Shown: one piece after another, positions 12,601 to 54,626 of the stretch | How the letters are laid out: the number at the start of each line of letters is the position of its first letter | How positions within the stretch are numbered: position 1 is the first letter of the stretch | Origin: Somniosus microcephalus | Taxonomy: Eukaryota | Direction: 5' to 3' | Length of the DNA: 64,000 bases | Assembly (NCBI GenBank): GCA_052327205.1 | Contig: CM126208.1 | Coordinates: forward strand, 207,452,001-207,516,000 | Notes under the pieces: model-generated | What the model was told of the DNA's origin: nothing | What the model saw: only the letters and a program-made list of their open reading frames with translations | The model's database searches: none | Translations under genes and position numbers: made by a program

Positions 12601-13396
12601 GACCAGGATACAGCGTGAGGTATTAGGGTACAGTGCGAGGGATCAGGGTACAGTACGAGGGATCAGGGTACAGTGTGAGTGACCAGTGTACCATGCGAGG
12701 GACAGGGTACAGTGTGAGGGGTCAGGGTACAGTGTGAGGGATCAGGGTACAGTGTGAGAGACCAGGATACAGTGTGAGCGACCAGGATACAGTGTGGGCG
12801 ACCAGGATACAGTGTGGGCGACCAGGATACAGAGTGAGCGACCAGGATACAGTGAGAGCGACCAGGGTACAGCGTGAGCGACCAGGGTACAGTGTGAGGG
12901 ACCAGGGGACAGGGTGAGGGAACAGGGGACAGTGTAAGGGACCAGGTTACAGTGTGAAGGAGCAGGGTACAGTGTGAGGGACCAGGATACAGTCTGAGGG
13001 ACCAGGGTACAGTGAGAGGGATCAGGGTACTGTGTGAGCGACCAGGATACAGTGTGAGTGACCAGGGGACAGTGTGAGGGCCCAGGGGACAGTGTGAGGG
13101 ACCACGGTCCAGTGTGAGGGACCAGGGTCCAGTGTGAGGGACCAGGGTCCAGTGTGCGGGACCAGGGTGCAGTGTGAGGGACCAGGGTCCAGTGTGAGCG
13201 ACCAGGATACAGTGTGAGCGACCAGGATACAGTGTCAGCGAGCAGGATACAGTGTGAGCGACCAGGATACAGTGTGAGCGACCAGGATACTGTGTGAGCG
13301 ACCAGGATACAGTGTGAGGGACCAGGGTCCAGTGTGAGCGACCAGGATACAGTGTGAGCGACCAGGATACAGTGAGGGACCAGGATACAGTGTGAG

Positions 13397-13661
13397 TGTG
13401 ATGAAATATTCCATTCATCACTGCCTGTGACTGTGGTCTGTTTCAGTGTCATTTCCCTTCCCCCAGTCCTCATTCTATTGTTTATTGGAATGTGCTGTGT
13501 GTAGGGCTCCGCCCATACCTGGCCCCTTTTGTAAGCTAGCTCAGTCTGGCCTCAGTCTCCAGAAGGAGGATGCCTCTCTCTCTTACGTGTTACTTTCTAA
13601 GTTAATAAAAGCCTTGTTTTGTTTCGCTAACATCGAGCCCCGGAATTATTGAGGCACATCA
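13397..13661 (+). repeat. 5' LTR of A1 (265 bp)
   Basis: TGTGATG...CACATCA. Differs from the 3' LTR by about 4 substitutions plus a 10-bp duplication (GGAATGTGCT) in the 3' copy. Confidence 0.95.
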
Positions 13662-13662
13662 A

Positions 13663-13675
13663 TTTTATTAACTTA
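13663..13675 (+). promoter_or_regulatory. PBS-position sequence complementary to the element's own LTR (candidate self-priming site)
   Basis: TTTTATTAACTTA begins 1 nt after the LTR and is the exact reverse complement of TAAGTTAATAAAA at 13598-13610. No TGG-type tRNA PBS is present. Confidence 0.7.
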
Positions 13676-13687
13676 TTTTTCAACACT

Positions 13688-16600
13688 ATGGATCAACTCC
13701 TGAAACCCGAACGTTTGGATTTGGATCAACATGCTCCGGACGCTTCAGCACGCTTCGGACACTGGTTTGAGTGTCTGGAATTCTTCCTGGACAATTCCGC
13801 AGCCGTCAAAGACGCTACGGACGCTGCGAGGATGAGACTCGGAATTCTGCGGAATTGGGTAAACCACCGGGTTTACCCCCTCATCCAAGACGCCGATACG
13901 TACCTGGCCGCCTGCGACATCTTAAAGGCGCATTACCAGCAGCCTACGAATGAGGTGTATGCTAGGCATCTGCTCGCAACTCGCGCACAGCGACCTGGGG
14001 AATCGGTGGAGGAGTTCCTAAGCACCCTGAAAATGCTTGGCAAAGACTGCAAGTGCCGAGATGTAAAAGCCGCAGTGTACACTGACGAGCTTGTTCGCGA
14101 TGCCTTTATCACAGGCCTCAGCTCCACTTACATCCGGCAAAGACTGCTGGAAAAAACGGGGTTGGACCTGAAACAGGCTGCGGACACCGCGCGATCCCTG
14201 GATGTGGCCCAGAGAAACTCGGACGCCTACTCTTCAGCCCGCGCCGTCCACGCCACCACGTGTGCACCGAGGGTGCCGCCATCTTGGAAGGCATCTTCCC
14301 CGCCCGGCAGCCCGACACCGGCGGGGCCCCGCTCTTCCCCCAGAAGCCCTACGACAGCCGCGGCGCGTCAGGGACCCAACCGCTACTTCTGCGGGTAGCC
14401 AAAACACACCAGAAACCTGTGCCCGGTGAAAGGCACCACCTGCTTTAAGTGCGGTAAGAAGGGGCACTTCGGGAAGGTGTGCAGAGGGAACCCCGCCAGA
14501 AAACCAACCGCCGGAAAACCCGCCACCGCCGCGTTTGCGCCGTGGGAGCGGCCATCTTGGACGCCATCTTGCCCGACCTCGTGGGGTCCGCCATCTTATG
14601 AGCAGACAGCGTGGATGCCATCTTCTATCGATCAGGGCCCTACAGTGGCATCGGTCACAGTGGACCAGACCAGGCCGCACCCGGTATCCAAATCAATGGT
14701 GGACATCGAGGTAAACGGGTGCCGGGTTAAATGCTTAATTGACAGTGGAAGCACGGAGAGTTTTATCCACCCTGAACTGGCACAACAACTCTCCCTAAAG
14801 GTGGTCCCTGCTCAGGGTACCATCTCTATGGCTGATAAAACCCAGACATCGACCATTCTGGGTTACTGCATGGTACAATTGGGCGTTAACGGAACTGTAT
14901 ACGATAATTTTAAAGTATTAATAATGAAGAACCTAGGTGCAAGCGTGATCTTGGGCCTGGATTTCCAGTGCAACCACCAAAGCATCACGCTCAAGTACGG
15001 TGGGTCCCAGCCGCCCCTCACAGTGTGCAGTCTGGCTACCCTGAAGGTAAAGCCGCCTTCGCTATTCGCGAACCTTACCCCTAACTGCCGGCCAATAGCG
15101 ACCAAAAGCAGGAGGTACAGCTGGGAGGACAGGCGGTTTATCGCGACCGAGGTAGACAGGCTCCTGAAAGAGCACATTATTGAACGCAGCAACAGCCCGT
15201 GGCGCGCCCAAGTGGTAGTGGTAAGGGGTAGCGAGAAGAAACGGATGGTGATCGACTATAGTCAAACGATCAACAGGTACACCCAACTAGACGCCTACCC
15301 GCTACCCCGCAGATCAGAAATGGTGAACCAAATCGCCCAATACCGGGTGTTCTCCACCATCGACCTCAAGTCAGCGTACCACCAGCTCCCTATCAGACCA
15401 GAGGACCGCCCGTACACCGCCTTCGAGGCGAACGGATGCCTCTACCAATTCCTCAGAGTCCCCTTTGGGGTGACGAATGGGGTCTCGGTCTTTCAGAGGG
15501 AGATGGACCGCATGGTCGATGACCACCACTTGCAGGCAACCTTCCCCTACCTCGACAACGTCACCATCTGCGGTCACAACCAGCAGGATCACGACTCGAA
15601 CCTCGAGAGGTTCCTGGAAACCGCACAAAAACTCAACCTCACCTACAACGAGGACAAGTGCGTTTTCAACACCACGCGCCTCTGCATACTAGGCAGCGTG
15701 GTGGAGAATGGGGAAATCGGACCAGACCCCGACCGATTGCGCCCCCTATGGGAGCTGCCCCTGCCCAACACTCCCAAAGCCCTGAAAAGGTGCCTGGGGT
15801 TATTTTCTTATTATTCCCAATGGGTCCCCAACTACTCCGACAAAGCCCGCCCCCTCTTGAAAGCATCCTCTTTTCCGCTCTCTGCTGAGGCCCACGCCGC
15901 CTTCAAAAGCATTAAGCAGGATATTGAGCGGGCCACGCTACAGGCAGTGGACAAGAACACTCCATTTCAAGTGGAAAGTGATGCGTCTGACTTCGCCTTG
16001 GCGGCCACCCTCAACCAGGCGGGGCGGCCCGTAGCTTTCTTCTCGAGGACCCTCCAAGGGCCCGAGATCAGACACTCCTCCGTGGAAAAGGAGGCCCAAG
16101 CCATCGTGGAGGCAGTGCGCCACTGGCGCCACTACCTAGCCGGCAAATGCTTCACCCTACTTACCGACCAGCGGTCGGTAGCGTTTATGTTCAATAATAA
16201 ACAGAGGGGGAAGATTAAAAATGATAAGATTCTTAGGTGGCGGATCGAGCTCTCCACCTTCGAGTATGACATCATTTACCGGCCAGGGGCCCTTACGAAT
16301 CCCCTGACGCCCTCTCATGAGGGATGTGTGCCAGCGCCACCGGGGATCGGCTACAGACCCTCCACAACGACCTCTGCCACCCAGGGGTCACGCGGCTGTT
16401 CCACTTCATAAAGTCCCATAACTTACCCTACTCGATTGAGGAAGTTCGGTCTCTGACCAGGAACTGCCGCACTTGCGCTGAGTGCAAGCCCCGGTTCTAC
16501 CGCCCAGATAGAGCCCACTTAATCAAAGCTACACGGCCCTTTGAGCGGCTCAGCTTAGATTTCAAGGGCCCCCTCCCGTCCGTCGACCGCAATGTTTACT

Positions 16601-17460
16601 TCCTGAACATTGTGGACGAATACTCCCGGTTCCCATTCGCCTTCCCCTGCCCAGACATGACCAGCGCCACTGTCATTAAATGCCTCAACAGCCTGTTCTG
16701 CCTGTTCGGTATGCCGAGCTACATCCATACGGATAGGGGGGCGTCCTTCATGAGTGAAGAGCTACGCCAGTACATGCTGTCCAAGGGGATCGCCATGAGC
16801 CATACCACCAGCTACAACCCCCGGGGTAACGGCCAAGTGGAGCGAGAGAACGGGACAGTATGGAAAGCAGTCACTCTAGCTCTAAGGACCAAGGGCCTCC
16901 CTATCTCCCGCTGGCAGGAAGTCCTCTCGGATGTGCTCCATTCGATACGGTCGCTATTGTGTACGGCCACTAATGCCACGCCTCATGAACGAATGTTTGT
17001 CTTTCCCCGGAAATCCACCTCAGGCGTATCCATGCCATCATGGCTCTCCACCCCAGGTCTGGTACTCGTGCGAAGGCATGTGAGGGGCCACAAGACGGAC
17101 CCTCTCGTGGAGCCAGTACACCTACTCCACGCCAACCCCCAATACGCATATGTCCGGCACGCCGATGGAAGGGAGAACACCGTGTCCATAAAAGACATCG
17201 CCCCAGCAGGCATCGACAACAACCACGGCAATAGCAGCAACAATGATCACAGCAACTCTTACCCACCCACTACTCTTTCATCACCCCCAGAAGAACATCG
17301 ACCAACGGCACCCCCACCAACTACCCCTTCAACAACCCTGGCGGCACCCCCGGCAGAGACCCAGGAGGCTACCGGGGACACCCAGCCGACACCCACGGCA
17401 CCACAACAGCCACGTCGGTCGCAGAGGACTATCAAACCCCCGAACAGACTAAATCTATAG
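13688..17460 (+). pseudogene. gag-pol of A1, single frame, disrupted
   Basis: Gag with CCHC knuckles, protease LIDSGS, RT IDLKSAYHQ...YLDN, RNase H ESDAS, integrase HHCC plus D(LDFKG)-D(TDRG)-E(QVER). Premature TAG at 14396-14398 (CAG in A2) and a 1-bp deletion near 16294. Confidence 0.93.
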
Positions 17461-17470
17461 AAGGGGTGAA
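17459..17470 (+). promoter_or_regulatory. Polypurine tract of A1
   Basis: AGAAGGGGTGAA immediately before the 3' LTR. Confidence 0.85.
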
Positions 17471-17745
17471 TGTGATGAAATATTCCATTCATCACTGCCT
17501 GTGACTGTGGTCGGTTTCAGTGTCATTTCCCTTCCCCCAGTCCTCATTGTATTGTTTATTGGAATGTGCTGGAATGTGCTGTGTGTAGGGCTCCGCCCAT
17601 ACCTGGCCCCTTTTGTAAGCTAGCTCAGTCTGGCCTCAGTCTCCAGAAGGAGGATGCCTCTCTCTCTTACGTGTTACTTTCTAAGTTAATAAAAGCCTTG
17701 TTTTGTTTCGCTAACATCGAGTCTCGGAATTATTGAGGCACATCA
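17471..17745 (+). repeat. 3' LTR of A1 (275 bp)
   Basis: Direct repeat of 13397-13661. Confidence 0.95.
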
Positions 17746-20700
17746 ATGAGCGACCAGGATACAGTGTGAGCGACTAGGGTGCAATGTGAGGGATCAGGGT
17801 CCAGTGTGAGTGACCAGGATCCAGTGTGAGGGACCAGGGTCCAGTGTGAGGGACCAGGGTCCAGTGTGAGGGACCAGAGTACAGTGTGAGGGACCAGGAT
17901 ACAGTGTGAGTGACCAGGATCCATTGTGTGGGACCAGGATCCAGTTTGAGGGACCAGGGTCCAGTGTGAGGGACCAGGGTACAGAGTGAGGGACCAGGGT
18001 ACAGCGTGAGGGACCAGGGTCCAGCGTGAGGCACCAGGGTCCAGCGTGAGGCACCAGGGTCCAGCGTGAGGCACCAGGGTCCAGCGTGAGGCACCAGGGT
18101 CCAGCGTGAGGCACCAGGGTCCAGAGTGAGGCACCAGGCTCCAGCGTGAGGCACCAGGGTCCAGCGTGAGGCACCAGGGTCCAGCGTGAGGCACCAGGGT
18201 CCAGAGTGAGGCACCAGGCTCCAGCGTGAGGCACCAGGCTCCAGCGTGAGGCACCAGGTTCCAGTGTGAGGACCAGTGTCCAGTGTGAGGCACCAGGGTC
18301 CAGTGTGAGGGACCAGGGTCCAGTGTGAGCGACCAGGATACAGTGTGTGGGACCAGGGCATAGTAAGAGAGACCAGGGTACAATGTGATGGGCCAGGGTA
18401 CAGTGAGAGAGTGCAGGGTACAGTGTGAGTGATCAGGATACAGTGTGAGGGATCAGCGTACAGTGTGCGGGGTCAGGGTATAGTGAGAGAGACCAGGGTA
18501 AAGTGTGAGGGACCAGGGTACAGCGTGAGTGACCAGGGTACAGCGTGAGTGACCAGGGTATAGCGTGAGCGATCAGGGGACAGTTAGAGGGAACAGGAGA
18601 CAGTGTGAGGGACCAAGGTACAGTGTGAGGGAGCAGGGTACAGTGTGAGCAGCCATGATACAGTGTGAGCGGCCAGGATACAGTGTGGGTGGCCAGGATA
18701 CAGTGTGAGCGGCCAGCGTACAGTGTGAGCGGCCAGCGTACTGTGTGAGCGACCAGGTTACAGTGTGAGCAACCAGGGTACAGTGTGAGCGGCCAGGGTA
18801 CAGTGTGAGCGACCAGGGTACAGTGTGAGCGACCAGGTTACAGTGTGAGCAACCAGGGTACAGTGTGAGCGACCAGGGTACAGTGTGAGCGACCAGGGGA
18901 CAGTGTGAATGACCAGGATACAGTGTGAGCGAACAGGATACAGTGTGAGCGAACAGGATACAATGTGAGCGAACAGGATACAGTGTGAGTGACCAGGATA
19001 CAGTGTGATGCACCAGGATACTTTGAGTGGGACCAGGGGACAGGCTGAGGGATCAGGGTACAGTGTGAGGGACCAGTGTAAAGTGTGAGGGACCAGCATA
19101 CAGTGTGAGGGACCACGGTACAGTGTGAGGGACCAGGGTCTAATGTGAGGGACCAGGGTCCAGTGTGAGGGACCAGGGTACAGTGTGAGCGACCAGGATA
19201 CAGTGAGAGCGACCAGGGTACAGCGTGAGCGACCAGGGTACAGCTTGAGTGACCAGGGTACAGCGTGAGCAACCAGGGTACAGTGTGAGGGACCAGGGTA
19301 CAGTGTGAAGGAGCAGAGTACAGTGTGAAGGAACAGGGTACAGTGTGAAGGAGCAGGGTACAGTGTGAGGGACCAGGGTACAGTGTGAGGGACATGGGGA
19401 CAGGGTGAGAGAACAGGGGACAGTGTGAAGGAGCAGGGTCCAGTGTGAGGGACCAGGGTCCAGTGTGAGCGGCCAGGTTACAGTGTGAATGAAAAGGATA
19501 CAGTGTGAGCGACCAGGATACAGTGTGAGCGACTAGGATACAGTGTGAGCGACCAGGGTCCAGTGTGAGCGACCAGGGTCCAGTGTGAGCGACCAGGGTC
19601 CAGTGTGAGCGACCAGGGTCCAGTGTGAGGGATCAGGGGACAGTGTGAGGGACCAGGAGACAGTGTGAGGCACCAGGGTCCAGTGTGAGGCACCAGTGTG
19701 CAGTGTGAGGCACCAGGGTCCAGTGTGGGGGACCACGGTCCAGTGTGAGTGAGCAGGGTCCAGATTGACAGACCAGGGTGCAGTGTGAGCGACCAGGATA
19801 CACTGTGAGCGAAAAAGATACAGTGTGAGCTACCAGGGTGCAGTGTGAGGGATCAGGGTCCAGTGTGAGGGACCCGGGTCCAGCGTGAGGGACCAGGGTC
19901 CAGCGTGAGGGAGCAGGGTCCAGTTTGAGGGACCCGGGTCCAGTGTGAGGGACCAGGGTCCAGTGTGAGGGACCAGGGTCCTGTTTCAGGTACTAGGGTC
20001 CAGTTTGAGGGACCAGGGCCCAGTGTGAGTGACCAGTGTCCAGTGTGAGGGACCCGGGTCCAGTGTGGTGGGTCAGGGTATAGTGAGAGAGACCAGGGTA
20101 AAGTGTGAGCGACCAGGATACAGCGTGTGGGACCAGGGCATAGTAAGAGAGAACAGGGTACAATGTGGTGGGCCAGGGTACAGTGTGAGAGAGCAGGGTA
20201 CAGTGTGAGTGACCAGGGTACAGTCTGAGTGACCAGGGTACAGCGTGAGCGACCAGGGGACAGTTAGAGGGAACAGGAGACAGTGTGAGGGACCAAGGTA
20301 CAGTGTGAGGGACCTGGGTACAATGTGAGCGGCCAGGATGCAGTGTGAGCGGCCAGGATACAGTGTGAGCGACAAGGATACAGTGTGAGCGACCAGGATA
20401 CAGTGTGAGCTACCAGGGTACAGTGTGAGCAACCAGAGTACATTGTGAGCGACCAGGGTACAGTGTGAGGGGCAAGGGTACAGTGTGAGGGACCAGGGTC
20501 CAGTGTGAGGGACCAGGATACAGTGTGGGTGACCAGGATACAGTGTGGGCGACCAGGATACAGTGTGAGCGACCAGGATACAGGCTGAGTGACCAGGATA
20601 CAGGCTGAGCGACCAGGATACAGTGTGAGCGACCAGGATACAGTGTGGGTGACCCGGATACAGTGTGGGTGACCAGGATACAGTGTGGGTGATGTGCCTC

Positions 20701-20997
20701 AATAAATCCGAGACTCAATGTTAGCGGAACAAAACAAGGCTTTTATTAACTTAGAAGGTAACACACAGTGGAGAGGTTTCTTCCATCCAGAGGTCTGCAG
20801 TACTGGATGTGAGCCACGCTGAGCCTGCTTACATAGGGGCCAGGTTTGGGCGGAGCCCTACACACAATACAATACAAGGTGAGGAAACGGAACTGAGGTA
20901 AGGGAAATGAAACTGAAACTAAACCACAGTCACAGGCACAATCACACAGAGAATACAGATGAGTGATGAATGGCATATTTCATCACATTCACCCCTT

Positions 20998-24757: not shown

Positions 24758-24770
24758 TAAGTTAATAAAA
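24758..24770 (-). promoter_or_regulatory. PBS-position self-complementary sequence of A2
   Basis: Plus-strand TAAGTTAATAAAA at 24758-24770 is an inverted repeat of TTTTATTAACTTA at 24823-24835 inside the 5' LTR. Confidence 0.7.
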
Positions 24771-26693
24771 TTGATGTGCCTCAATAAATCCGAGACTCAA
24801 TGTTAGCGGAACAAAACAAGGCTTTTATTAACTTAGAAGGTAACACACAGTGGAGAGGTGTCTTCCATCCAGAGGTCTGCAGTGCTGGATGTGAGGCACG
24901 GAGAGCCTGCTTACATAGGGGCCAGGTATGGGCAGAGCCCTACACACAATACAATACAAGGTGAGGAAACGGAACTGAGGTCAGGGAAATGAAACTGAAA
25001 CTAAACCACAGTCACAGGCACAATCACACAGAGAATACAGATGAGTGATGAATGGCATATTTCATCACAGTGGGCGACCAGGATACAGTGTGGGCGACCA
25101 GTATACAGGCTGGGCGACCAGGATACAATGTGAGTGACCAGGATACAGTGTGCCAGACCAGGATACAGTGTGAGCGACCATGATACAGTGTGAGGGACCA
25201 GGATACAGCGTGAGAGACCAGGATCCAGTGTGAGGGACCAGGGTCCAATGTGTGGGACTAGGGTCCATTGTGAGAGACCAGGGAACAGTGTGAGCGACCA
25301 GGGTCCAGTGTGAGCAGCCAGGGTCCAGTGTGAGGGACCAGGGTCCAATGAGTGGGAGCAGGGTACAGTGTGAGAGACCAGGGAACAGTGTGAGGGACCA
25401 GGGTCCAGTGTGAGGGACCAGGGTCCAGTGTGAGGGACCAGGGTCCAATGTGTGGGACCAGGGTACAGGGTGAGAGCCCAGGGAACAGTGTGAGCGACCA
25501 GGGTCCAGTGTGAGGGACCAGGGTCCAGTGTGTGGGACCAGGATACAGTGTGAGCGACCAGGGTCCAGTGTGTGGGACCAGGGTCCAGTGTGTGGGACCA
25601 GGGTCCAGTGTGTGGGACCAGGGTACAGTGTGAGAGCCCAGGGAACAGTGTGAGCGACCAGGATCCAATGTGTGGGACCAGGGTCCAGTGTGTGCGACCA
25701 GGGTCCAGTGTGAGAGACAAGGGAACAGTGTGAGCGACCAGGGTCCAGTGTGAGCGACCAGGGTACAGTGTGAGCGACCAGGGTCCAGTGTGAGGGACCA
25801 GGGTCCAGTGTGTGGGAACAGGGTCCGGTGTGAGCGACCAGGTTACAGTGTGAGCGACCAGGATCCAGTGTGAGCGACCAGGGTACAGTGTGAGGGGCCA
25901 GGGACCAGTGTGAGGCACCAGGGTCCAGTGTGAGGCACCAGGGTCCATTTTGATGGACCAGGGCCCTGTTTGAGCGACCAGGGTGCAGTGTGAGCGACCA
26001 GGATACAGTGTGAGCGACCAGGATACGATGTGAGGGACCAGGATACATTGTGAGGTACCAGGGTCCAGTGTGAGGGACCCGGGTCCAGTGTGAGGGACCA
26101 GGGTCCAGTGTGAGGGACCAGGGTCCAGTTTGAGGGACCAGGTTCCAATGTGAGGGACCAGGGTCCAGTGTGAGGGACCAGGGTCCAGTGTGAGCGACCA
26201 GGATACAGTGTGAGCGACCAGGATACAGTGTGAGCGACCAGGATACAGTGTGAGCGACCAGGATACAGTGTGAGCGAACAGGATACAGTGTGAGCGACCA
26301 AGATACAGTGTGAGCGACCAAGATACAGTGTGAGGGACCAGGTTACAGTGTGAGGGATCAGGGTACAGTGTGAGGGATCAGGGTGCAGCGTGAGGGATCA
26401 GGGTACAGTGCGAGAGAGCAGGGTACAGTGTGAGCGACCAGGGTACCGTGAGAGGGAGCAGGGTACAGTGTGAGCAACTAGGCTCCAGTGTGAGTGACCA
26501 GGTTACAGTGTGAGCGACCAGGGTACAGTGTGAGGGATCAGGGTGCAGCGTGAGGGATCAGGGTACAGTGCGAGAGAGCAGGGTACAGTGTGAGTGAGCA
26601 GGGTACAGCGTGAGCGATCAGGGTACAGCGTGAGTGACCAAGGTACAGCGTGAGAGACCAAGGTACAGCGTGAGAGACCAGGGTACAGCGTGA

Positions 26694-30000: not shown

Positions 30001-32589
30001 CAGTGTGATGGACCAGGATACAGTGTGATGGACCAGGATACTTTGAGAGGGACCAGGGTACAGTGTGAGAGAGCAGAATACAGTGTGAGGGATCAGGGTA
30101 GTGTGAGGGATCAGGGTACAGTGTGAGCGACCAGGGTACAGTGTGAGCGCCCAGGGTACAGTGTGAGCACCCAGGATACAGTGTGAGCACCCAGGATACA
30201 GTGTGAGGACCAGGGGACAGTGTGAGCAACCAGGGGACAGTGTGAGGGACCAGCGGACAGTGTGAGCGACCAGGATACAGTGTGAGCGACCAGGGGACAG
30301 CGTGAGCGACCAGGGGACAGCGTGAGCGACCAGGGGACAGCGTGAGCGACCAGGGGACAGCGTGAGGGACCAGGGTCCAGCGTGAGGGACCAGGGTCCAG
30401 CGTGAGGGACCAGGGTCCAGCGTGAGCGACCAGGATACTGTGTGAGCGACCAGAATACAGTGTGAGTGAAAAGGATACAGTGTGAGCGATCAGGATACAG
30501 TGTGAGGGACCCGGGTCCAGTGTGAGGCACCAGTGTCCAGCGTGAGGCACCAGGGTCCAGCGTGAGGCACCAGGGTCCAGCGTGAGGGACCAGGGTCCAT
30601 TGTGAGGGTCTAGGTTCCAGTGGGAGGGACCCGGGTCCAGTGTGACAGACCAGTGTCCAGTGTGAGGGACCAGGGTCCAGTGTGAGGGAGCAGGGTGCAG
30701 TGAGCGCGACCAGGATACTGTGTGAGCGACCACGACCCAGTGTGAGCGACCAGGATAGAGCGTGTGGGACCAGGGCGCAGTGAGAGAGACCAGGTTACAA
30801 TGTGATGGGCCAGGGTACAGTGTGAGAGAGCAGGTTACAGTGTGAGCGACCAGGGTACAGTGTGAGCAACCAGGGGACAGTGTGAGTGACCAGCGGACAG
30901 TGTGAAGGGCCAGGTTACAGTGTGAGCAGCCAGGATACAGTGTGAGCGGCCAGCGTACAGTGTGAGCGGCCAGCGTACAGTGTGAGCGACCAGAATACAG
31001 AGTGAGCGACCAGGATAAAGAGTGAGTGACCAGGATACAGTGTGAGCGCCCAGGGTACAGTGTGAGCACCCAGGATACAGTGTGAGCACCCAGGATACAG
31101 TGTGAGTGAGCAACCAGGGGACAGTGTGAGCAACCAGGGGACAGTGTGAGAGACCAGTGGACAGTGTGAGAGACCAGTGGACAGTGTGAGCGACCAGGAT
31201 ACAGTGTGAGCGACCAGTATAGAGTGTGAGCGACCAGGGTACAGTGTGAGCGACCAGGGTACTGTGTGAGCGACCAGGATACATTGTGAGCGAACAGGAT
31301 ACAGTGTGAGGGATCAGGGTACAGTGTGAGGGGCCAAGGGACAGTGTGAGGGACCAGGGGACAGTGTGAGGTACCAGGGGACAGTGTGAGGGACTAGGGG
31401 ATTGTGTGAGGGACCAGCGTAAAGTGTGAGAGTCCAGCATACAGTGTGAGGGTCCACGGTACAGTGAGAGGGACCAGGGTCCAGTGTGAGGGACCAGGGT
31501 CCAGTTTGAGCGACCAGGGTGCAGTTTGAGCGACCAGGATACAGTGTGAGCGACCAGAGTACAGTGTGAGCGACCAGAATACATTGTGAGCGACCAGGGT
31601 ACAGTGTGAGGGACCAGGTTCCAGTGTGAGGGACCAGGGTCCAGTGTGAGGGACCAGGGTCCAGTGTGAGCGGCCAGGATACAGTGTGAGCGGCCAGGAT
31701 ACAGTGTGAGCGACCAGGGGACAGTGTGAGCGACCAGGGGACAGTGTGAGCGACCAGGGGACAGTGTGAGCGACCAGGGGACAGTGTGAGTGACCAGGGG
31801 ACAGTGTGATGGACCAGGATACAGTGTGATGGACCAGGATACTTTGAGAGGGACCAGGGTACAGTGTGAGGGAGCAGAGTACAGTGTGAGGGATCAGGGT
31901 AGTGTGAGGGATCAGGGTATAGTGTGAGGGATCAGGGTATATTGTGGGGGACGAGCGTAAAGTGTTAGAGATCAGGGTATGCAGTGAGGGACCAGGGGAC
32001 AGTGTGAGGGACCAGGGGACAGTGCGAGGGCCCAGGGCCCAGTGTGAGTGACCAGGGGACAGTGTGAGCGACCAGGGGACAGTGTGAGCGACCAGGGGAC
32101 AGTGTGAGCGACCAGGGGACAAGTGTGAGGGACCGGGGTCCAGTGTGAGGCACCAGGATACAGTGTGAGGCACCAGGATACAGTGTGAGGGACCAGGGTC
32201 CAGTGTGAGGGACCAGGGTACAGTATGAGGGACCAGGGTACAGTATGAGGGACCAGGGTACAATATGAGGGATCAGGGTACAGTGTGAGGGATCCGGGAA
32301 TATTGTGAGGGATCGGGGTATTAAGTGAGGGATCGGGGTGTAATGTGAGGAATCAGGGTATAATGTGAGGGACGAGCGTAAAGTGTTAGTGTTGTGTATT
32401 TGAATGTGTTAGAAATGTCCCCACATGGGATACCGTAGTTGTGATTTGCAATGCACTGTGGGAAATGTAGTGCATTGAGTGAAGAAGCACATTATAATAA
32501 AATGGCCATTACCTAAACACTCCACCCTGGAGTCTTTCTTTAATTGTTATAAAGATCAGGGTATAAAACCCCGTGAGACATAATAAAAT

Positions 32590-32600
32590 TGGCGACAAGG
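32590..32600 (+). promoter_or_regulatory. Primer binding site of element B, tRNA-Ser(GCU)-like
   Basis: TGGCGACAAGG is one mismatch from TGGCGACGAGG, the complement of the tRNA-Ser(GCU) 3' end as I recall it. Confidence 0.7.
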
Positions 32601-32885
32601 ACGAAGGACTTGCGCATCACTTTGCGCTGGAATCGGCGATGTTTAAAGTAAGTCACTTTGCACAGGAATCGGCGATGTTTAAAGTAAGAAGTTCCTGTCT
32701 TTTCTGAATGCATCAGCCCTAAACTGTGGGCGTGCCAATCACCTCGTAAAGGTGGCGGTTCGTGTGTTACACAAATAAGGGGAGAGTAACGATACAGTGA
32801 AACAAAGTGGAGAAAAAGGACTGTGATAAGGACTGGTAACAAAAAAATATATAAAATAAAAAAAATAAAAAAATAATTTTAAAAA

Positions 32886-35800
32886 ATGGCGATGCTAACC
32901 GGAGCCTTTGGACCATTTGATTTAACGGCGGAGCAATGGAGTGCTTATACAGAGCGTTTCGGATTTTTCGTGACTGCAAATGGCATTAAAGATGACATGA
33001 AAGTGGCAACGTTCCTCAGTCTGATCGGCACAAAAACATTTGGCTTGTTACGGAGTTTGATGCACCCGGATAAGCCCGGTGCTAAGACATATGATCAGAT
33101 TGTGGAAGTTTTGGAAACACATTTCGCACCCAAGCCGCTGCTGATTGCCGAGAGGTTCAGGTTTCACACACAAAACCAAGGGGAGGGTGAGTCCATAGCC
33201 GAATATGTTGCAGTGCTAAAGAAGCTAACTGAGCATTGAGTTCGGTGAAACTCTAAATGACACTGTCCGTAATAGGTTTGTGTGTAGATTAAGATGTGAA
33301 GCAACACAGAAGCGCTTGCTCATGACTGACAAACTGACACTTAATTCAGCAGTGGAGCTCGCTGTCTATGGAGTTAGCAGCTAAAGATGCACAGCTGTTG
33401 GGGGCTGCTATGAGAGTGCACAGGATAGCAGCTACACCGGATAAACATGCAAGGGGCGCCAGAGAGTGCTACAGATGTGGGAGGTCAGGTCATCAGCCAT
33501 CTGACTGCTGGTGCAAAGACCTGACCTGTCGGAAATGTGAAAAGAAAGGACACATTGAACGTGTGTATAAAGGGCAAAGCAAACAATCCTACACAGAGAC
33601 ACACAAAAACAAACAAAGAACCACACCTAACTGGCATTCTAAAAAGAAAAACCTACACTTGGTGAAACAAGAACAGGAAGACAGTGACACAGACTGTGCT
33701 GTCTTTCTTTAGGAATTTATGTTAGTTTTCCAGTTAATTCAGGGGTTTGAGTAATTTGGGTCGATTCCCATTGTGTGCCGCCACCTAGTGGATATTTGGT
33801 ACCTAGCAACTGCAGCAAAAGCGCAGTAAAGTGCAGTAAAGCACAATAAGTGCAGTAAAGTAAACTACTGTATATCACAGACCTACAGCCACACATGGTC
33901 TGGGAAGTTATATTGTTGCCACGCTTGAGCCTTGGATACTATTTGTCTGTAAGTACTTGAGAATGTTATAGATGATTAGTGTACACTATATTTTGCAGAA
34001 AATGTTTAGTTTGTAACTTTTCTCTGTAAGCAAACTTACACAGCTGGCCGTGAAGTGCTCACTCTCTGTCTAGCTGGTTAACTTGTAGCTGTATTTTGAT
34101 GCACTATGTACAGGGCTAATTTAAAGAGAATGCCTTCCAGTTTGCTAAATGTATATTCACAGTAAGCTGTGTTTCCATGTGTTTGGTAAGTTACATGCCA
34201 AATGTACTGTGTTGCTCAGGTGTACCTAAATTTGTGTATGCATATCAGTTATGTGCTTGTATACTAATGTGTGCTTCCATTTCTGTGTTGTATTTCAGTT
34301 TCACAATAAGAATCTTTCAGTAAAGTTTTACAAGAAAAGTCAAGCCTTGTGATTTTTATGGGAAAATATCAAGTTGTTAGCTACCTGTCTAGCTCTGCAT
34401 AGGAACGCGCTGCAAGGGCAGAATACAGACTCTGATGGGGAGAGGAATCTCCATGTGTTAACAGTGAATGGAGGCTCATCAGGCTATAGAGTCACTCCAC
34501 TACTAGAGGGAATACCAGTCAAAATGGAGCTGGATACAGGGGCCGCTGTCTCCTTGATCTCAGAGAAGCTATTCAAAGAAAAACTGAACCACCTATCATT
34601 GACGCTGGCCAAGCTCATCTTATAGACCTACACTGGGGAAACAGTCCCCATGCTGGGTAAGACGTAAGTCAAGGTGGAGCTTCATGGACAAACCGTGATG
34701 CTGCCAGTTTACGTGGTCAAGGGTGACTATCCATCCCTGATGGGCAGGCCATGGCTGGAGAAAATCCATCTGGATTGGGAAAAAGTGAATGCGGTGTCAG
34801 TCGAAGAGGCGGGGCTAGCGGCAGTGTTGACAAAGCATACAGCTGTCTTCGACGGAGAATTGGGGAGCATGAAAGGGATTACGGTCAAACTCAAGGTGAA
34901 GCCTGAGAGCCAGCCACGATTCCTGAAGGTCAGGAACGTTCCCTACGCCCTCAGACCAAAGGTGGAGGCTGACCTGGAGCGCCTGGTCAAGATAGGGGTC
35001 CTGGTGCCGGTTTCGCACAGTGAGTGGGCCACGCCCATGGTACCAGTGATGAAGAGAGATGGCACGGTTCGCTTATGTGGCGATTTCAAAGTAACAGTGA
35101 ATCCGGTGCTCTCAGCTGAACAGTACCCCCTCCCCATCATTGAAGATCTTTTCGCAGGTCTAGCAGGTGGTCAGAAGTTTAGCAAGATTGATCTATGCCA
35201 AGCCTACTTGCAGATGCATGTAGAAGAGGACTCACAGAAGCACCTCACCATCACCACCCACAAGGGCCTCTATAGGTACTGCCGCCTACCCTTTGGTATA
35301 ACGTCAGCACCAGCTTTGTTTCAGCGGCATTCCAGGGGTACGTTATCTCGACGATATCCTTGTCACAGGAAAGGACGACAACGAGCATCTGCAGAACCTG
35401 GCGAAGACACTGGGAAGACTTGAAGAACATGGCTTACGCGTTCGCAAGGACAAATGCGAATTTTTCAAGCCATCAGTGGAGTACTTAGGCCATGTCATCG
35501 ACGCGGACGGCCTACACACAGCACCGTCGAAAGTGAAAGCCATTGCCGATGCTCCTGCACCTACAAATGTCGGCCAGCTGCGGTCATTCTTAAGTCTCCT
35601 GAACTATTACGGAAAGTTTATTCCACAGCTGGCATCACTGTTGAAGCCATTACATGAGTTGCTGTGTCAGGGCAAGGCCTGGGCATGGACGAAGGAGTGC
35701 GAAGCTGCATTCAAGAAAGCCAAAGCAGCTTTGACTGACCCCAGAGTGTTGACGCACTTTGACCCGTCGTTGCAGATTCAGCTGGCCTGTGACGCGTCGC

Positions 35801-37308
35801 CTTATGGCGTCGGTGCGGTCGTGTCCCACATCTTTCCCTCAGGCGAAGAGAAGCCAATTGCATTCGCGTCAAGGTCCCTGAGCAAGGCGGAGCTGAAATA
35901 CCCGGTCAAAAAAGAGGCTTTGGGCATCATCTTTGGAATCAAAAAGTTCCATCACTACTTGTTCAGAAGGAAATTCACCTTGCTGACGGATCATCGTCCT
36001 CTGACATTGATCTTTGGTCCACACACAGGAATACCCTCCCTGGCAGCGGGCAGGATGCAGCGCTGGGTGCTGATGTTAAGCGCTCACAATTACAACATCA
36101 AATACTGGAGGTCAGCAGCACATGGCAATGCGGACGGATTGTCAAGACTTCCGCTGCCTGTGCCCTCTGAAGGCTGTGAGCAGAAGATTTTCTACTTTGA
36201 CATGGTGAGCAATGCCCCTGTCACGGCCCGGCAGGTCAAGAAAGAGACCAGAGTGGACCCTACGCTATCCAAGGTGCTGGATCGGGTAATGCGAGGAGAC
36301 GGATCACGGGTATCAGATGCACCACCTGAGCTCCTACCTTACCTGTCGAGAGGGAAGGAGTTGTCTGTCACGTCAGGATGCCTCCTTTGGGGCATGCGAG
36401 TGATCATACCACCAAAGCTGCGGAAACATGTCCTCAACGAGCTACACTCAGGACATTGTGGTATTGTCCAGATGAAGGAGCTGGCACGAAGCTACTTCTG
36501 GTGGCCCGGTCTGGATCATGAAATTGAAGTTGAAGCGAAATCATGCCCATCATGTGAGACAACCAGGGATACGCCACTGCATCCATGGCCAGCGACACCG
36601 TGGCAACGGATCCATCTGGATTTCACGGGACCAGTGGAAGGAGCGATGTTCCCGGTCGCGGTGGACTCCCATTCCAAATGGCCAGAGGTTGCAGTGATGT
36701 CCACTACCACTGCGGAGAAAACCATCGAGACTCAGAGAGATGTTTGGGCGATTTGGTCTGCCGGAGCAGATCGTAACCGACAATGGAACACAGTTCACAT
36801 CCCAGGAGATGGAGGAGTTCCTCAAGAGCAATGGAATCCAGCACACGTTCTCCGCGCCTTATCATCCATCCACGAATGGATTGGCGGAGAGATTTGTCAG
36901 AACGCTGAAACGCGCGTTGAACGACACTTTGTGGTGGGGGGCAATGTCCTCGCGCGTAACTACACCACCCCGGAGCGGTGGGTCCCGGCTACGGTCATTC
37001 AAAAGACGGGCCCCATTTCATACCGAGTCCGCACCAGAGATGACCGAACATGGAGACGGCATGTAGACCAGTTACTGCCAAGACAGTCGCCACAGGTAAC
37101 CCAAGAAACAGAGGATCAAGGACCTGCTGGGGGCTCCAGCAGGGACCGGTCGTCCAACCCTGAGACGGTGGCACCATCCACTCTTGTGCCATCGAGGGAG
37201 GAAGCCACATCTGCAGGGTCACGGGAGAGCCAGCCAGAGCCTGCTCCTGAGACTAGGCGTTACCCCCAAAGAGAAAGGCAGCCTCCAGAGCGCCTTATTT
37301 ACAGTTAG
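32886..37308 (+). pseudogene. gag-pol of element B, with multiple stops, frameshifts and deletions
   Basis: Gag WSAYTERF and two CCHC-type knuckles, protease LDTGAA, RT IDLCQAYLQ and YLDD (near 35343), RNase H ACDASPYG, integrase H..GH...CxxC, HLDF, TDNG and NGLAER. Confidence 0.9.
33695..34425 (+). mobile_element. Solo LTR, probably BEL/Pao type, nested in element B
   Basis: TGTGCTGTC...GGCAGAATA termini with 5-bp TSD CAGAC (33690-33694 / 34426-34430). Removing it restores the host frame ...SDTD|SDGERNLH. The BEL call rests on the style of the termini only. Confidence 0.7.
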
Positions 37309-37774
37309 TGCTAACCTGTGTGCATGGGGCAGAATAATCCCCAGGGTTAGTGGAATGTAGAGGTAGTCTACCCTCTCTTCCAAAGTTATAGTCATTTTCA
37401 GTTATTCTGTTTTGTGGACATTCTATTTTAAGGGGGAGGAATATGTTGTGTATTTGAATGTTAGAAATGTCCCCACATGGGATACCGTAGTTGTGATTTG
37501 CAATGCACTATGGGAAATGTAGTGCATTGAGTGAAGAAGCACATTGTAATAAAATGGCCATTAAAGAAAGACTCCAGGGTGGTGTTCAGTTAATTGTTAT
37601 AAAGATCAGGGTATAAAACCCCGTGAGACATAACAGTTAGAGATCACAGTATACTGTGAGGGACCAGGGGACAGTGTGAGGGACCAGGTGACAGTGTGAG
37701 GGTCCACGGTACAGTGCGAGAGACCAGGGTACAATGTGAGAGAGCAGGGTACAGTGTGAGGGATCAGGGTATAA

Positions 37775-50900: not shown

Positions 50901-52024
50901 AAATTGTGCCCTGTACACTCACATCCAAGTCATTTATATCAAGAAAAGCAGTGGTCCTAGAACCGATCTCTGGGGTACACCACTGTATACCTTCCTTCAT
51001 TTCGAAAAACAACCGTTCACCACAACTCTCGGTTTCCTGTCACTTAGTCAATTTTATATCCATACTATCACTGTCCCTTTTATTCCATGGGTTTCAACTT
51101 TGCTGGCAAGCCTATTTTTAAAAAATTCATTTTTATGGGATGTGAGCGTTGCTGGCAAGGCCAGCATTTATTGCCCATCCCAAATTGCCCCCGAGAAGGT
51201 GGTGGTGAGCCGCCGCCTTGAACCGCTGCAGTCCGTGTGGTGAAGGTACTCCCACAGTGCTGTTAGGGAGGGAGTTCCAGGATTTTGACCCAGCGACGAT
51301 GAAGGATCGGCGATATACTTCTAAGTCAGGATGGTGTGTGACTTGGAGGGGAACTTGGAGGTGGTGGTGTTCCCATGCGTCTGCTGCCCTTGTCCTTCTA
51401 GGTGGAAGAGGTCACGGGTTTGGGAGGTGCTGCCGAAGAAGCCTTGGCGAGTTGCTGCAGTGCATCTTGTAGATGGTACACACTGCAGCCATGGTGGAGG
51501 GAGTGAATGTTTAAGGTGGTGGATGGGGTGCGAATCAAGCGGGCTGCTTTGTCCTGGATGGTGTCGCACTTCTTGTGTTGTTGGAGCTGCACTCATCCAG
51601 GCAAGTGGAGTGTATTCAATCACACTCCTTACTTGTGCCTTGTAGATGGTGGGAAGGCTTTGGGGAGTCAGGAGGGGTGACACACGCCACAGAATACCTA
51701 GCCTCTGATCTGCTCTTGTTGCAACAGTATTTATGTGGCTGGTCCAGTTAAGTTTCTGGTCAATGGTGACTCCCAGGATGTTGATGGTGGGGGATTCGGC
51801 AATGGTAATGCCATTGAATATCAAGGGGCGGTGTTTAGACTCTCGCTTGTTGGAGATAGTCATTGCCTGGCACTTCTGCGGCGCGAATATTATCTGCCAC
51901 TTATCAGCCCAAGCCTGAACGTCGTCCAAGTCTTGTTGCATGCGGGCATGGGCTGCTTCATTATCTGAGGAGTTGTGAATGGCACTGAACACTGTGCAGT
52001 CATCAGCGAACATCCCCATTTCTG

Positions 52025-54349
52025 CGATAGCAAAATACTGCGGATGTTGGAAATCCAAAATAACAACAGAAAATGCTGGAAAAACTCAGGTGGTCAGGCA
52101 ACAGCCGTGGAGAAAAATTTGAGTTGACGCTTCGGGTCGAACCCTTCTTCAAAACTGGAAAGAAAAGATAGGTCGGAGGCAGGGCTGCGATCGGACAAAA
52201 GAATAAAAGAAACAAAAGAAGTAAAAGAGACAATAAAAGGTATTAGAAGCTAGACGAGATGGTAATAGGCTGAGATTAGGTGTAAAGTGTACTGGCAGGG
52301 CAAGAGATAGCTGCCAGGTGTGAGAGAGAAACAAAAGGAAAGGGGGGGGGGGGGGGGGGGGGAAAGGAGTGGAAAAATTACAAGAAAAAATGAAATAGGG
52401 GCCGAGGTTATGATCTGAAATTGTTGAACTCGATATTGAGTCCGGAAGGCTGCAGAGTGCCTAATCGGAAGATGAGGTGCTGTTCCTCGAGTTTACGTTG
52501 AGCTTCCGTGGAACAATACAAGAGGCCAAGGACGGTGAGGTCCGAGTGGGACTGGAGCAGTGAATTAAAATGACAGGCGACCGGAAGCTCGGGGGTCACC
52601 CTTACGGACTGAACGGAGGTGTTCCGCAACAGTTTCTAGTTTCCTGGCCCCAACCGCTTCCTTTTCACCATGGACGTACAATCCCTCTACACCTCCATCC
52701 CCCACCCGGATGGCCTGAGGGCGCTCCGCTTCTTCCTTGAACAGAGGCCCGACCAGTCCCCATCCACCACCACCGTCCTCCGCCTGGCTGAACTTGTTCT
52801 CACATTGAACAACTTCTCCTTTAACTCCACTCATTTCCTCCAAATCAAAGGTGTTGCCATGGGTACCCGCATGGGTCCTAGCTATGCCTGCCGTTTCGTG
52901 GGCTATGTGGAACAATCTTTGTTCCAGTCCTACTCGGGTCCCCTCCCTCACCTCTTTTTCCGATACATTGATGACTGTATCGGTGCCGTTTCCTGCTCTC
53001 GTCCCGAACTTGACAATTTCATTCACTTTGCCTCCAATTTCCACCCTTCCCTCACCTTCACATGGTCCATCTCTGACTCTTCCCTTCCTCGACTTCTCCG
53101 TCTCCATCTCTGGGGATAGGTCATCAACCAATATTCACTACAAGCCCACTGACTCCCACAGCTACCTGGACTACACTTCCTCCCACCCCGCTTCCTGTAA
53201 GGACTCTATTCCATTCTCCCAGTTTCTCCATCTCCGCCATATCTGCTCCGACGATGCCACCTTCCACACCAGTGCTTCAGACATGTCTTCCTTTTTCCGC
53301 AACCGAGGATTCCCCTCGACCGTGTCAGTTCTATCTCCTGCACTTCTGCCCTCACCCCTGCCCCTCCCTCCCGGAACCACGATAGGGTTTCCCTTGTCCT
53401 CACCTTTCACCCCACCAGCCTCCGCATTCAACGGATCATCTTCCGGCATTTCCGCTACCTCCAAAGTGATCCCACCACCAAACGTATCTTCCCCTCCCCT
53501 CCCCTTTCAGCATTCCGCAGGGACCGCTCCCTCCGAGACACCCTAGTCCACTCCTCTATCACCCTAAACAGCCCTTCCCCTTCGCCTGGCACCTTCCCGT
53601 GCAAGCGGAGGAGATGTAACACCTGCCCCTATACCTCCCCCCTTCCCACTGTCCAGGGCCCCAAACACCCCTTCCAGGTGAAACAGTGATTTACTTGTAC
53701 TTCTCGCAATCTAGTATACTGTATTCGCTGCTCATGATGCGGTCTCCTCTACATTGGGGAGACCAAACACAGATTGGGTGACCGCTTTGCGGAACACCTC
53801 CGTTCAGTCCGTACGGGTGACCCCGAGCTTCCGGTCGCCTGTCATTTTAATTCACCGCTCCATTCCCACTCGGACCTCACTGTCCTTGGCCTCTTGTATT
53901 GTTCCACGGAAGCTCAACGTAAACTCGAGGAACAGCACCTCATCTTCCGATTAGGCACTCTGCAGCCTTCCGGACTCAATATCGAGTTCAACAATTTCAG
54001 ATCATAACCTCGGCCCCTATTTCATTTTTTCTTGTAATTTTTCCACTCCTTCTCTCCCCCCCCTTTCCTTTTGTTTCTCTCTCACACCTGGCAGCTATCT
54101 CTTGCCCTGCCAGTACACTTTACACCTAATCTCAGCCTATTACCATCTCGTCTAGCTTCTAATACCTTTTATTGTCTCTTTTACTTCTTTTGTTTCTTTT
54201 ATTCTTTTGTCCGATCGCAGCCCTGCCTCCGATCTATCTTCTTTTCTTTCCAGTTTTGAAGAAGGGTTCAACCCGAAACGTCAACTCAAATTTCTCTCCA
54301 CGGATGTTGCCTGACCTGCTGAGCTTTTCTAGCATTTTCTGTTGTTATT
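52025..54349 (+). mobile_element. 5'-truncated Penelope-like element (Neptune-like) with an inverted terminal repeat
   Basis: RT motifs MDVQSLYTSIP, GVAMG and RYIDD; Cys linker CKRRRCNTC; GIY-YIG VYCI...YIGET. 52057-52629 is an inverted copy of 53787-54349. TSD TCCCCATTTCTG (52013-52024 / 54350-54361). Confidence 0.92.
54251..54287 (+). ncRNA. Minimal hammerhead-ribozyme-like motif of the PLE terminal repeat (variant core); second copy at about 52121-52158 on the minus strand
   Basis: AGTT-TTGAAGA-AGGGTTCAACCC-GAAACGTC-AACT: helix I AGTT/AACT, helix II GGG/CCC, core UUGAAGA instead of CUGANGA. Confidence 0.55.
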
Positions 54350-54626
54350 TCCCCATTTCTGACCTTATGTTGGAGGGAAGGTCATTGATGAAGCAGCTGA
54401 AGATGGTTGGGGCCTAGGAACTCTTGCAGTGATGTCCTGAGGCTGTAATGATTGACCTTCAATCACCACAACCATCTTCCTTTGTGCTAGGTATGACTCC
54501 AGCCAGTGGAGAGTTTCCCCCGATTCCTATTGACTTCAGTTTTACTAGGGCTCCTTGATGCCACACTCGGTCAAATGCCGCCTTGATATCAAGGGCCGTC
54601 ACTCTCACTTCTCCTCTGGAGCTCAG

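Follow-up and report, generated by a model that had tools for sequence, protein, structure and literature searches.

Two copies of one LTR element in a satellite array

The window, by which we mean the whole 64,000-nt stretch of DNA analysed here, comes from a source genome of 6.4 Gb and contains a 20-bp satellite that hosts two copies of one LTR element, A1 (13397-17745, plus strand) and A2 (25069-20690, minus strand). Both copies lie in the same satellite (window 1891-32292), in opposite orientations and at similar positions of the repeat unit, with the target site duplications (TSDs) GTGAG and GTGGG. A further Gypsy element in the same window, B, served as the tRNA-type control. The features to which we refer are as follows.

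13397..13661, plus strand: 5' LTR of A1, 265 bp, TG...CA, 94.9% identical to the A1 3' LTR
13527..13535, plus strand: TATA-like box of A1, degenerate, 70 nt upstream of the arm
13598..13610, plus strand: candidate self-primer arm of A1, TAAGTTAATAAAA, containing AATAAA at 13604-13609
13611..13614, plus strand: RCC(T) just 3' of the A1 arm, candidate cut junction, conserved; 5' strand of a short second helix
13662, plus strand: one-nt A spacer of A1 between the LTR-terminal CA and the PBS, invariant in 25/25 aligned families
13663..13675, plus strand: PBS position of A1, TTTTATTAACTTA, no TGG, exact complement of the arm
13688..17460, plus strand: gag-PR-RT-RNase H-IN reading frame of A1, without a chromodomain
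17459..17470, plus strand: polypurine tract of A1, adjoining the 3' LTR
17471..17745, plus strand: 3' LTR of A1, with a second arm copy at 17682-17694
24772..25069, minus strand: 5' LTR of A2, with its arm at 24823-24835
24758..24770, minus strand: PBS position of A2, identical in sequence to that of A1
20690..20987, minus strand: 3' LTR of A2; the TSD GTGGG flanks both sides of A2
about 32385-37637: unrelated Gypsy element B, with a broken ORF and a TGG-type PBS, TGGCGACAAGG, at 32590

The reading frame of A1 is interrupted by a stop (14396-14398) and a frameshift near 16321-16411, and that of A2 is likewise broken by a stop and a frameshift. The PR-RT-RNase H-IN order, TG...CA LTRs, polypurine tract and short TSD (5 bp in A1, with one mismatch: GTGAG at 13392-96 and ATGAG at 17746-50) are those of Ty3/Gypsy elements. 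The initial annotation had described the element as lacking a chromodomain, and we agree: no chromo family was found in A1, A2 or five full-length homologues, and no chromo accession (PF00385) appears in the precomputed domains of 92 and 120 homologues among the matches listed. Among those matches the closest named protein homologues come from sharks and rays, and by its protein homologues the lineage is hosted by sharks and rays, nematodes, insects, crustaceans, tunicates and cnidarians; no relative was found in viral contigs. In an RT tree built from single best HSPs, with element B as the sole outgroup, the families are scattered on long branches, and those of the source genome form one supported group with ray proteins. 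The RT-RNase H part scores 164 bits against Ty3 and a shorter part of element B 133-146 bits, and these values, being scores and not phylogeny, show no special affinity. Motif C of RT (within 14399-16411) reads YLDN in A1 and A2, and YxDN stands instead of YxDD in 154 of 196 long lineage proteins. According to PMC2148107, the change from YxDD to YxDN abolishes Ty1 transposition and RNase H mutations partly suppress this effect, and YVDN occurs also in the Sinbad and Atlas papers.

Elsewhere in the window a six-copy tandem repeat of 74-75 bp (54624-55076) lies near an RT fragment (51321-52085). Beyond the window, copies about 4.1 kb apart were seen at G000 C2:1569322/1573390, C10:180705201-180713411 and C37:40714911/40719019. 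This is the spacing expected of tandem elements with one common LTR, and LTR recombination or Tf1-like integrase-independent insertion could be their source.

Pairing of the PBS position with its own LTR

The initial annotation proposed that 13663-13675, 1 nt past the 5' LTR, is the exact reverse complement of 13598-13610, and in A1 this is confirmed, with the LTR end set independently by the 3' LTR (17471-17745) and the 5-bp TSD; the LTR ends of other families are likewise fixed independently by their LTR pairs. The complementarity is not due to chance. A fixed pairing rule applied at 520 internal control positions gave a maximum of 7 bp, 12 bp was reached by 1 of 52,000 shuffles and 13 bp by none, and the PBS of element B pairs over only 4 bp with its own LTR. 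The polarity is also right for priming, the 3' end of the putative primer pointing into U5, and the suggested extension of the stem by GCCT (13611-14) with AGGC (13652-55) is paired in the MFE fold; folding of 13598-13690 gives a z of -3.4, with 3 of 200 shuffles equally good. The same pairing does recur in A2 (24823-24835 with 24758-24770) as was claimed, but as evidence this says little, given that A1 and A2 share 93.6% identity over the arm-to-PBS block (internal region 94.8%, U3 77%). Genome-wide, the exact A1 arm/PBS pair is present in 3,829 copies.

Gag searches of the genome turned up another four families, whose arms differ and are in each case complementary to the PBS of that family. 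Of 80 loci from a metagenome scan, the Gag start was usable in 33 and not in 47. By the fixed rule at least 11 perfect bp were found at 125 of 140 genome loci and at 23 of the 33 usable metagenome loci, as compared to 0/520 controls; most of the ten usable loci below this threshold carry a decayed or mismatched form of a visible duplex, and at the usable loci L094 and L125 no duplex was seen. From the source genome and metagenome contigs we hand-picked 26 family representatives, kin to one another, and aligned 25 of them, leaving out L077 for its bulged duplex (it is kept in the 26-family counts). In the alignment 92.5% of 400 cells are paired and two-sided changes occur at 14 of 16 pairs. Pairing over the 26 families is almost complete as far as position -13, drops to about 65% over -14 to -16, and approaches the chance level further out. 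Slid partners paired at 29-50%, and 0/500 shuffles scored as high, a count that is not a probability because the rows are related and the structure was taken from them. The covariation across family members that the initial annotation proposed to test is present: arms differ yet remain paired, both between families and within them. These data bear on the possibility that the primer is a tRNA fragment of the host or some other small RNA, with an incidental LTR match. Half-tRNA primers do exist in copia lineages (passages of PMC6317226), yet here 25 different PBSs each fit their own LTR while cross-family arm/PBS matches average 4.6 bp, no Rfam match was found over 13390-13800, and we consider such a primer scarcely credible; ARAGORN also found nothing.

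Within the A1 family our counts cover 3 of the 13 duplex positions (-10, -9 and -8). At -10 a PBS change is present in 51 copies (20 compensated, 31 PBS-only) and an arm change in 39 (20 compensated, 19 arm-only); the 20 compensated transversion doubles, 19 of which belong to one subfamily, compare with about 0.01 expected from independent changes. Of the 37 arm variants at -9, compensation is seen in 24: two A1 backgrounds account for 22, including 10 that sit in local arrays, and another family for the remaining 2. Position -8 is represented by a subfamily of about a thousand copies, with 1,060 arm-variant matches and 98 compensated among the first 100 listed, and by 24 PBS-only changes, 14 of which, in scattered copies, are wobble-capable (U-G intermediate). 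All four of the amplified arm variants found in the family have a compensating PBS change, so the arm changes that got amplified are the compensated ones. Among 29 uncompensated, arm-only copies the 3' LTR was readable in 24, and the changes confined to the 5' LTR (23 of these 24) are post-insertion decay; compensated copies with a readable 3' LTR carry the change in both LTRs in 10 of 11 cases. One copy, L247, combines the arm change in both LTRs with an unaltered PBS and has a compensated copy as its nearest neighbour. Mismatched duplexes may transpose, since PBS-only variants occur as mutual nearest neighbours (L261/L268 and L263/L270). In the set L261-L271 the C-to-A change of the PBS at -10 (11 copies) is commoner than the mirror G-to-T change of the arm (4 copies, 2 events).

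Such within-family compensation fits copying of the primer into the PBS and also fits plain selection on the stem, as compensated lineages are expected from selection on any RNA stem too. It has also to be weighed against an inverted repeat matched at the DNA level, through quasi-palindrome template switching, that has no role in priming. One copy speaks for this: in L221 (G000:C2:206733067) the 5' arm and PBS are changed compatibly and the 3' LTR arm is standard, a pattern that primer copying does not explain and that is possibly a DNA-level palindrome correction. It is a single case, however, set against 23 5'-arm-only and 55 PBS-only variants left uncorrected, and DNA-level matching accounts for neither the fixed position of the duplex nor the missing tRNA site; we hold it to be very improbable.

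Register, poly(A) signal and transcript ends

The position of the duplex is constant. CA+A precedes the PBS in 25/25 aligned families, the duplex end always lying 1 nt from the CA of the LTR, and the sequence that follows begins T-pyrimidine-T in 25/25 and TGG in 0/25. A G is found at -10 (13601 in A1) in 24 of the 25, and the 3' end of the arm reads A-A/G-A and is followed by RCC-like letters. This invariant 1-nt register is needed for priming and not for poly(A) masking. The second helix is weak, at 4.1 bp against 3.0 bp in shuffles (18/25 families, p 0.003), and a third duplex as in the Tf1 pretzel was not above shuffles (6.3 vs 6.5 bp; 25 families).

In 15 of 26 families the arm terminates in AATAAA or ATTAAA, several of the others carry near-hexamers, and in the 11 where the hexamer is absent from the arm end the duplex is kept. 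Two of the families, L061 and L062, have a hexamer downstream, and L082 and L099 have none; the stem is present in all four, and its persistence in L082 and L099 is support for priming. That the same stem might mask the poly(A) signal, as proposed in the initial annotation, is therefore plausible in A1, with AATAAA inside its arm, but does not extend to the families as a whole; where hexamer and arm overlap, hiding of AATAAA in the 5' LTR only is likely a side benefit. One might go further and suppose, by the logic of the HIV-1 poly(A) hairpin, that the stem does nothing but mask the 5' LTR signal and that something else primes. The hexamers and near-hexamers in the arm, and a partner strand found only downstream of the 5' LTR, accord with this idea, which we nevertheless think quite unlikely: it leaves no primer site where T-pyrimidine-T and never TGG follows the LTR, it does not explain the register, and the stem is retained where the hexamer lies elsewhere or is missing.

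A TATAAA lies 70-73 nt upstream of the arm in four source-genome families, as does the degenerate box of A1 at 70 nt, and none was found in the metagenome families. The spacing from TATA to transcript start is usually about 30 nt. With this spacing the start would fall about 40 nt before the arm, near 13555-13560 in A1, and the arm probably sits inside R, about 40 nt in, in the source-genome families. A start at 13598-13600, as predicted by the initial annotation, is made doubtful by the TATA spacing in five families and by the pyrimidine with which most arms begin, although the Inr-like YWAGT motif in the 5' part of the arm would still allow it. The initiator consensus TCAKTY resembles the arm's 5' part (passages of PMC3601003), and alternative transcript starts are described for Tf2 (passages of PMC5341516). 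Two raw-read RNA-seq runs of a related organism, searched with 13397-14200 at 90% likeness, gave reads from both strands and many subfamilies, with read-through beyond the LTR end; neither a transcript start nor a poly(A) site nor a splice joint showed up in that stretch. We also considered a primer made by splicing (GTAAG at 13531, AG at 13600-01) and rejected it: the pairing crosses the AG in contiguous DNA, four families are without the AG, and no joint was seen.

An upstream start combined with an end past AATAAA would place the arm at both RNA ends (13598 and 17682), and the primer could then be the other arm copy, drawn from the 3' R of genomic RNA or from a short transcript whose poly(A) tail was added in the 5' LTR, and trimmed or cut to the duplex. 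All covariation data fit this equally, and in 15 of 26 families the arm closely precedes the point where polyadenylation is expected. The 5' arm, however, is merely 21-68 nt from the PBS across families and folds onto it locally, and the conserved RCC, together with the second helix, suggests endonucleolytic cutting here more than a point where trimming halts, which leads us to regard a primer from the other copy as unlikely.

Self-priming model and comparison with known systems

Considered jointly, the sequence evidence suggests that A1 is a young, high-copy Ty3/Gypsy element that would start minus-strand synthesis from its own LTR arm and not from a tRNA, by Tf1-like cutting and extension, a reading to which we give a probability of roughly 0.68. 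The arm-PBS pairing is real and conserved; the self-priming of the initial annotation gains from the lack of a tRNA-type PBS, the covariation and the polarity into U5, and from these we infer the priming itself, as what would be a variant of a known mechanism. In this model the 5' R copy of the arm would fold onto the PBS, and the element's RNase H would cut at AAA/RCC (13610/13611), aided by the short second helix, as in Tf1. RT would then extend the AAA-3' end through the spacer and U5 to give about 52 nt of strong-stop DNA, which would jump by way of the stretch between the poly(A) signal of the 3' LTR and the poly(A) site, and in plus-strand synthesis the primer would be copied to regenerate the PBS. 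In this way an arm change, once inherited, would be compensated within two cycles, with no second mutation. With the arm some 40 nt into R, as is probably the case in the source-genome families, the primer would be 5'-tailed, whereas in Tf1 it is 5'-terminal. In Tf1 the primer is the RNA 5' end, a geometry that the TATA spacing speaks against, and in the literature on self-priming elements we found no precedent for a cut that releases a 5'-tailed primer. The duplex length of ~13 bp is close to the polymerase-RNase H spacing of Ty3 RT (~13 bp; passages of PMC5371799), which is suggestive only. Copying of the primer into the PBS is described for retroviruses (passages of PMC7472051), and single-stranded PBS DNA for Tf1 cDNA (passages of PMC11042837).

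At present we can only put forward tentatively, and with the balance of our judgement somewhat against it, the wider proposal that a large, chromodomain-less animal Gypsy lineage evolved self-priming independently of Tf1/sushi, with the primer excised from mid-R where the poly(A) signal ends, a single helix both silencing the 5' poly(A) site and priming, and primer copying rewriting the PBS. Proof of self-priming exists for a yeast element, and the same is assumed of the related chromoviruses and of a handful of lineages in plants. If the proposal is true, a second lineage, widespread in animals and represented by thousands of young copies, would make tRNA-free priming a common route, one that tRNA-fragment silencing directed at the PBS could not reach. 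From the fixed register (G at -10, AAA/RCC, CA+A) the primer ends can be predicted exactly, and the copy population renders primer-templated PBS inheritance testable from genomes alone. New here are the count of compensated copies within the family, the constant register, the distance from TATA box to arm, and YxDN in RT.

The poly(A) hairpin of HIV-1 holds AATAAA in a local stem at the RNA 5' end, and its primer is a tRNA. A1 resembles it in having AATAAA in a stem at the RNA 5' end and differs in that the partner strand is the PBS itself, present only at the 5' end. The Cigr-1/MolGy-type non-chromovirus invertebrate Gypsy clades, compared by description only, likewise consist of small single-ORF animal elements of about 4.2 kb, Cigr-1 presumably matching the ~4.2 kb of the A1 type. 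These clades are named in PMC6238403 and PMC8556966, of which the main texts do not contain the term 'PBS'; in the literature we found no description of self-priming in a non-chromovirus animal Gypsy clade, and Repbase, GyDB or supplements may record one. Tcn1 chromoviruses and the TAR (Houba/Osr-1) copia elements of plants belong to other lineages and hosts and are classed by the same pairing of at least 10 bp, 0-5 nt after the 5' LTR (passages of PMC6317226), self-priming being predicted there also.

The closest likeness in mechanism is to Tf1/Tf2 (S. pombe), Tj1 (S. japonicus), Tosmo1-3/Tcry1 and the Tf1/sushi chromoviruses, in which the PBS is likewise complementary to the element's own LTR and not to a tRNA (for Tf1 self-priming and its three-duplex structure see passages of bioRxiv 10.1101/2022.12.06.519325 and PMC4600332). 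The A1-type families have the PBS of this group, with at least 10 bp to their own LTR at 0-5 nt from it, and are without the PBS starting TGG that defines tRNA-primed Gypsy elements and that element B possesses. Shared with the Tf1/sushi group are a PBS directly after the LTR-terminal CA and a helix adjoining the primer 3' end. In contrast to that group, the A1 lineage has no chromodomain and an RT motif that is mostly YxDN, and its arm, which seemingly overlaps the poly(A) signal within R instead of forming the RNA 5' end, leaves a loop of only 21-68 nt; compared with Tf1 itself, the central duplex is present, the second helix weak and the third pretzel duplex unsupported. We suggest that the A1 lineage would work like Tf1 yet should not be filed in the Tf1/sushi group, because it lacks the chromodomain.
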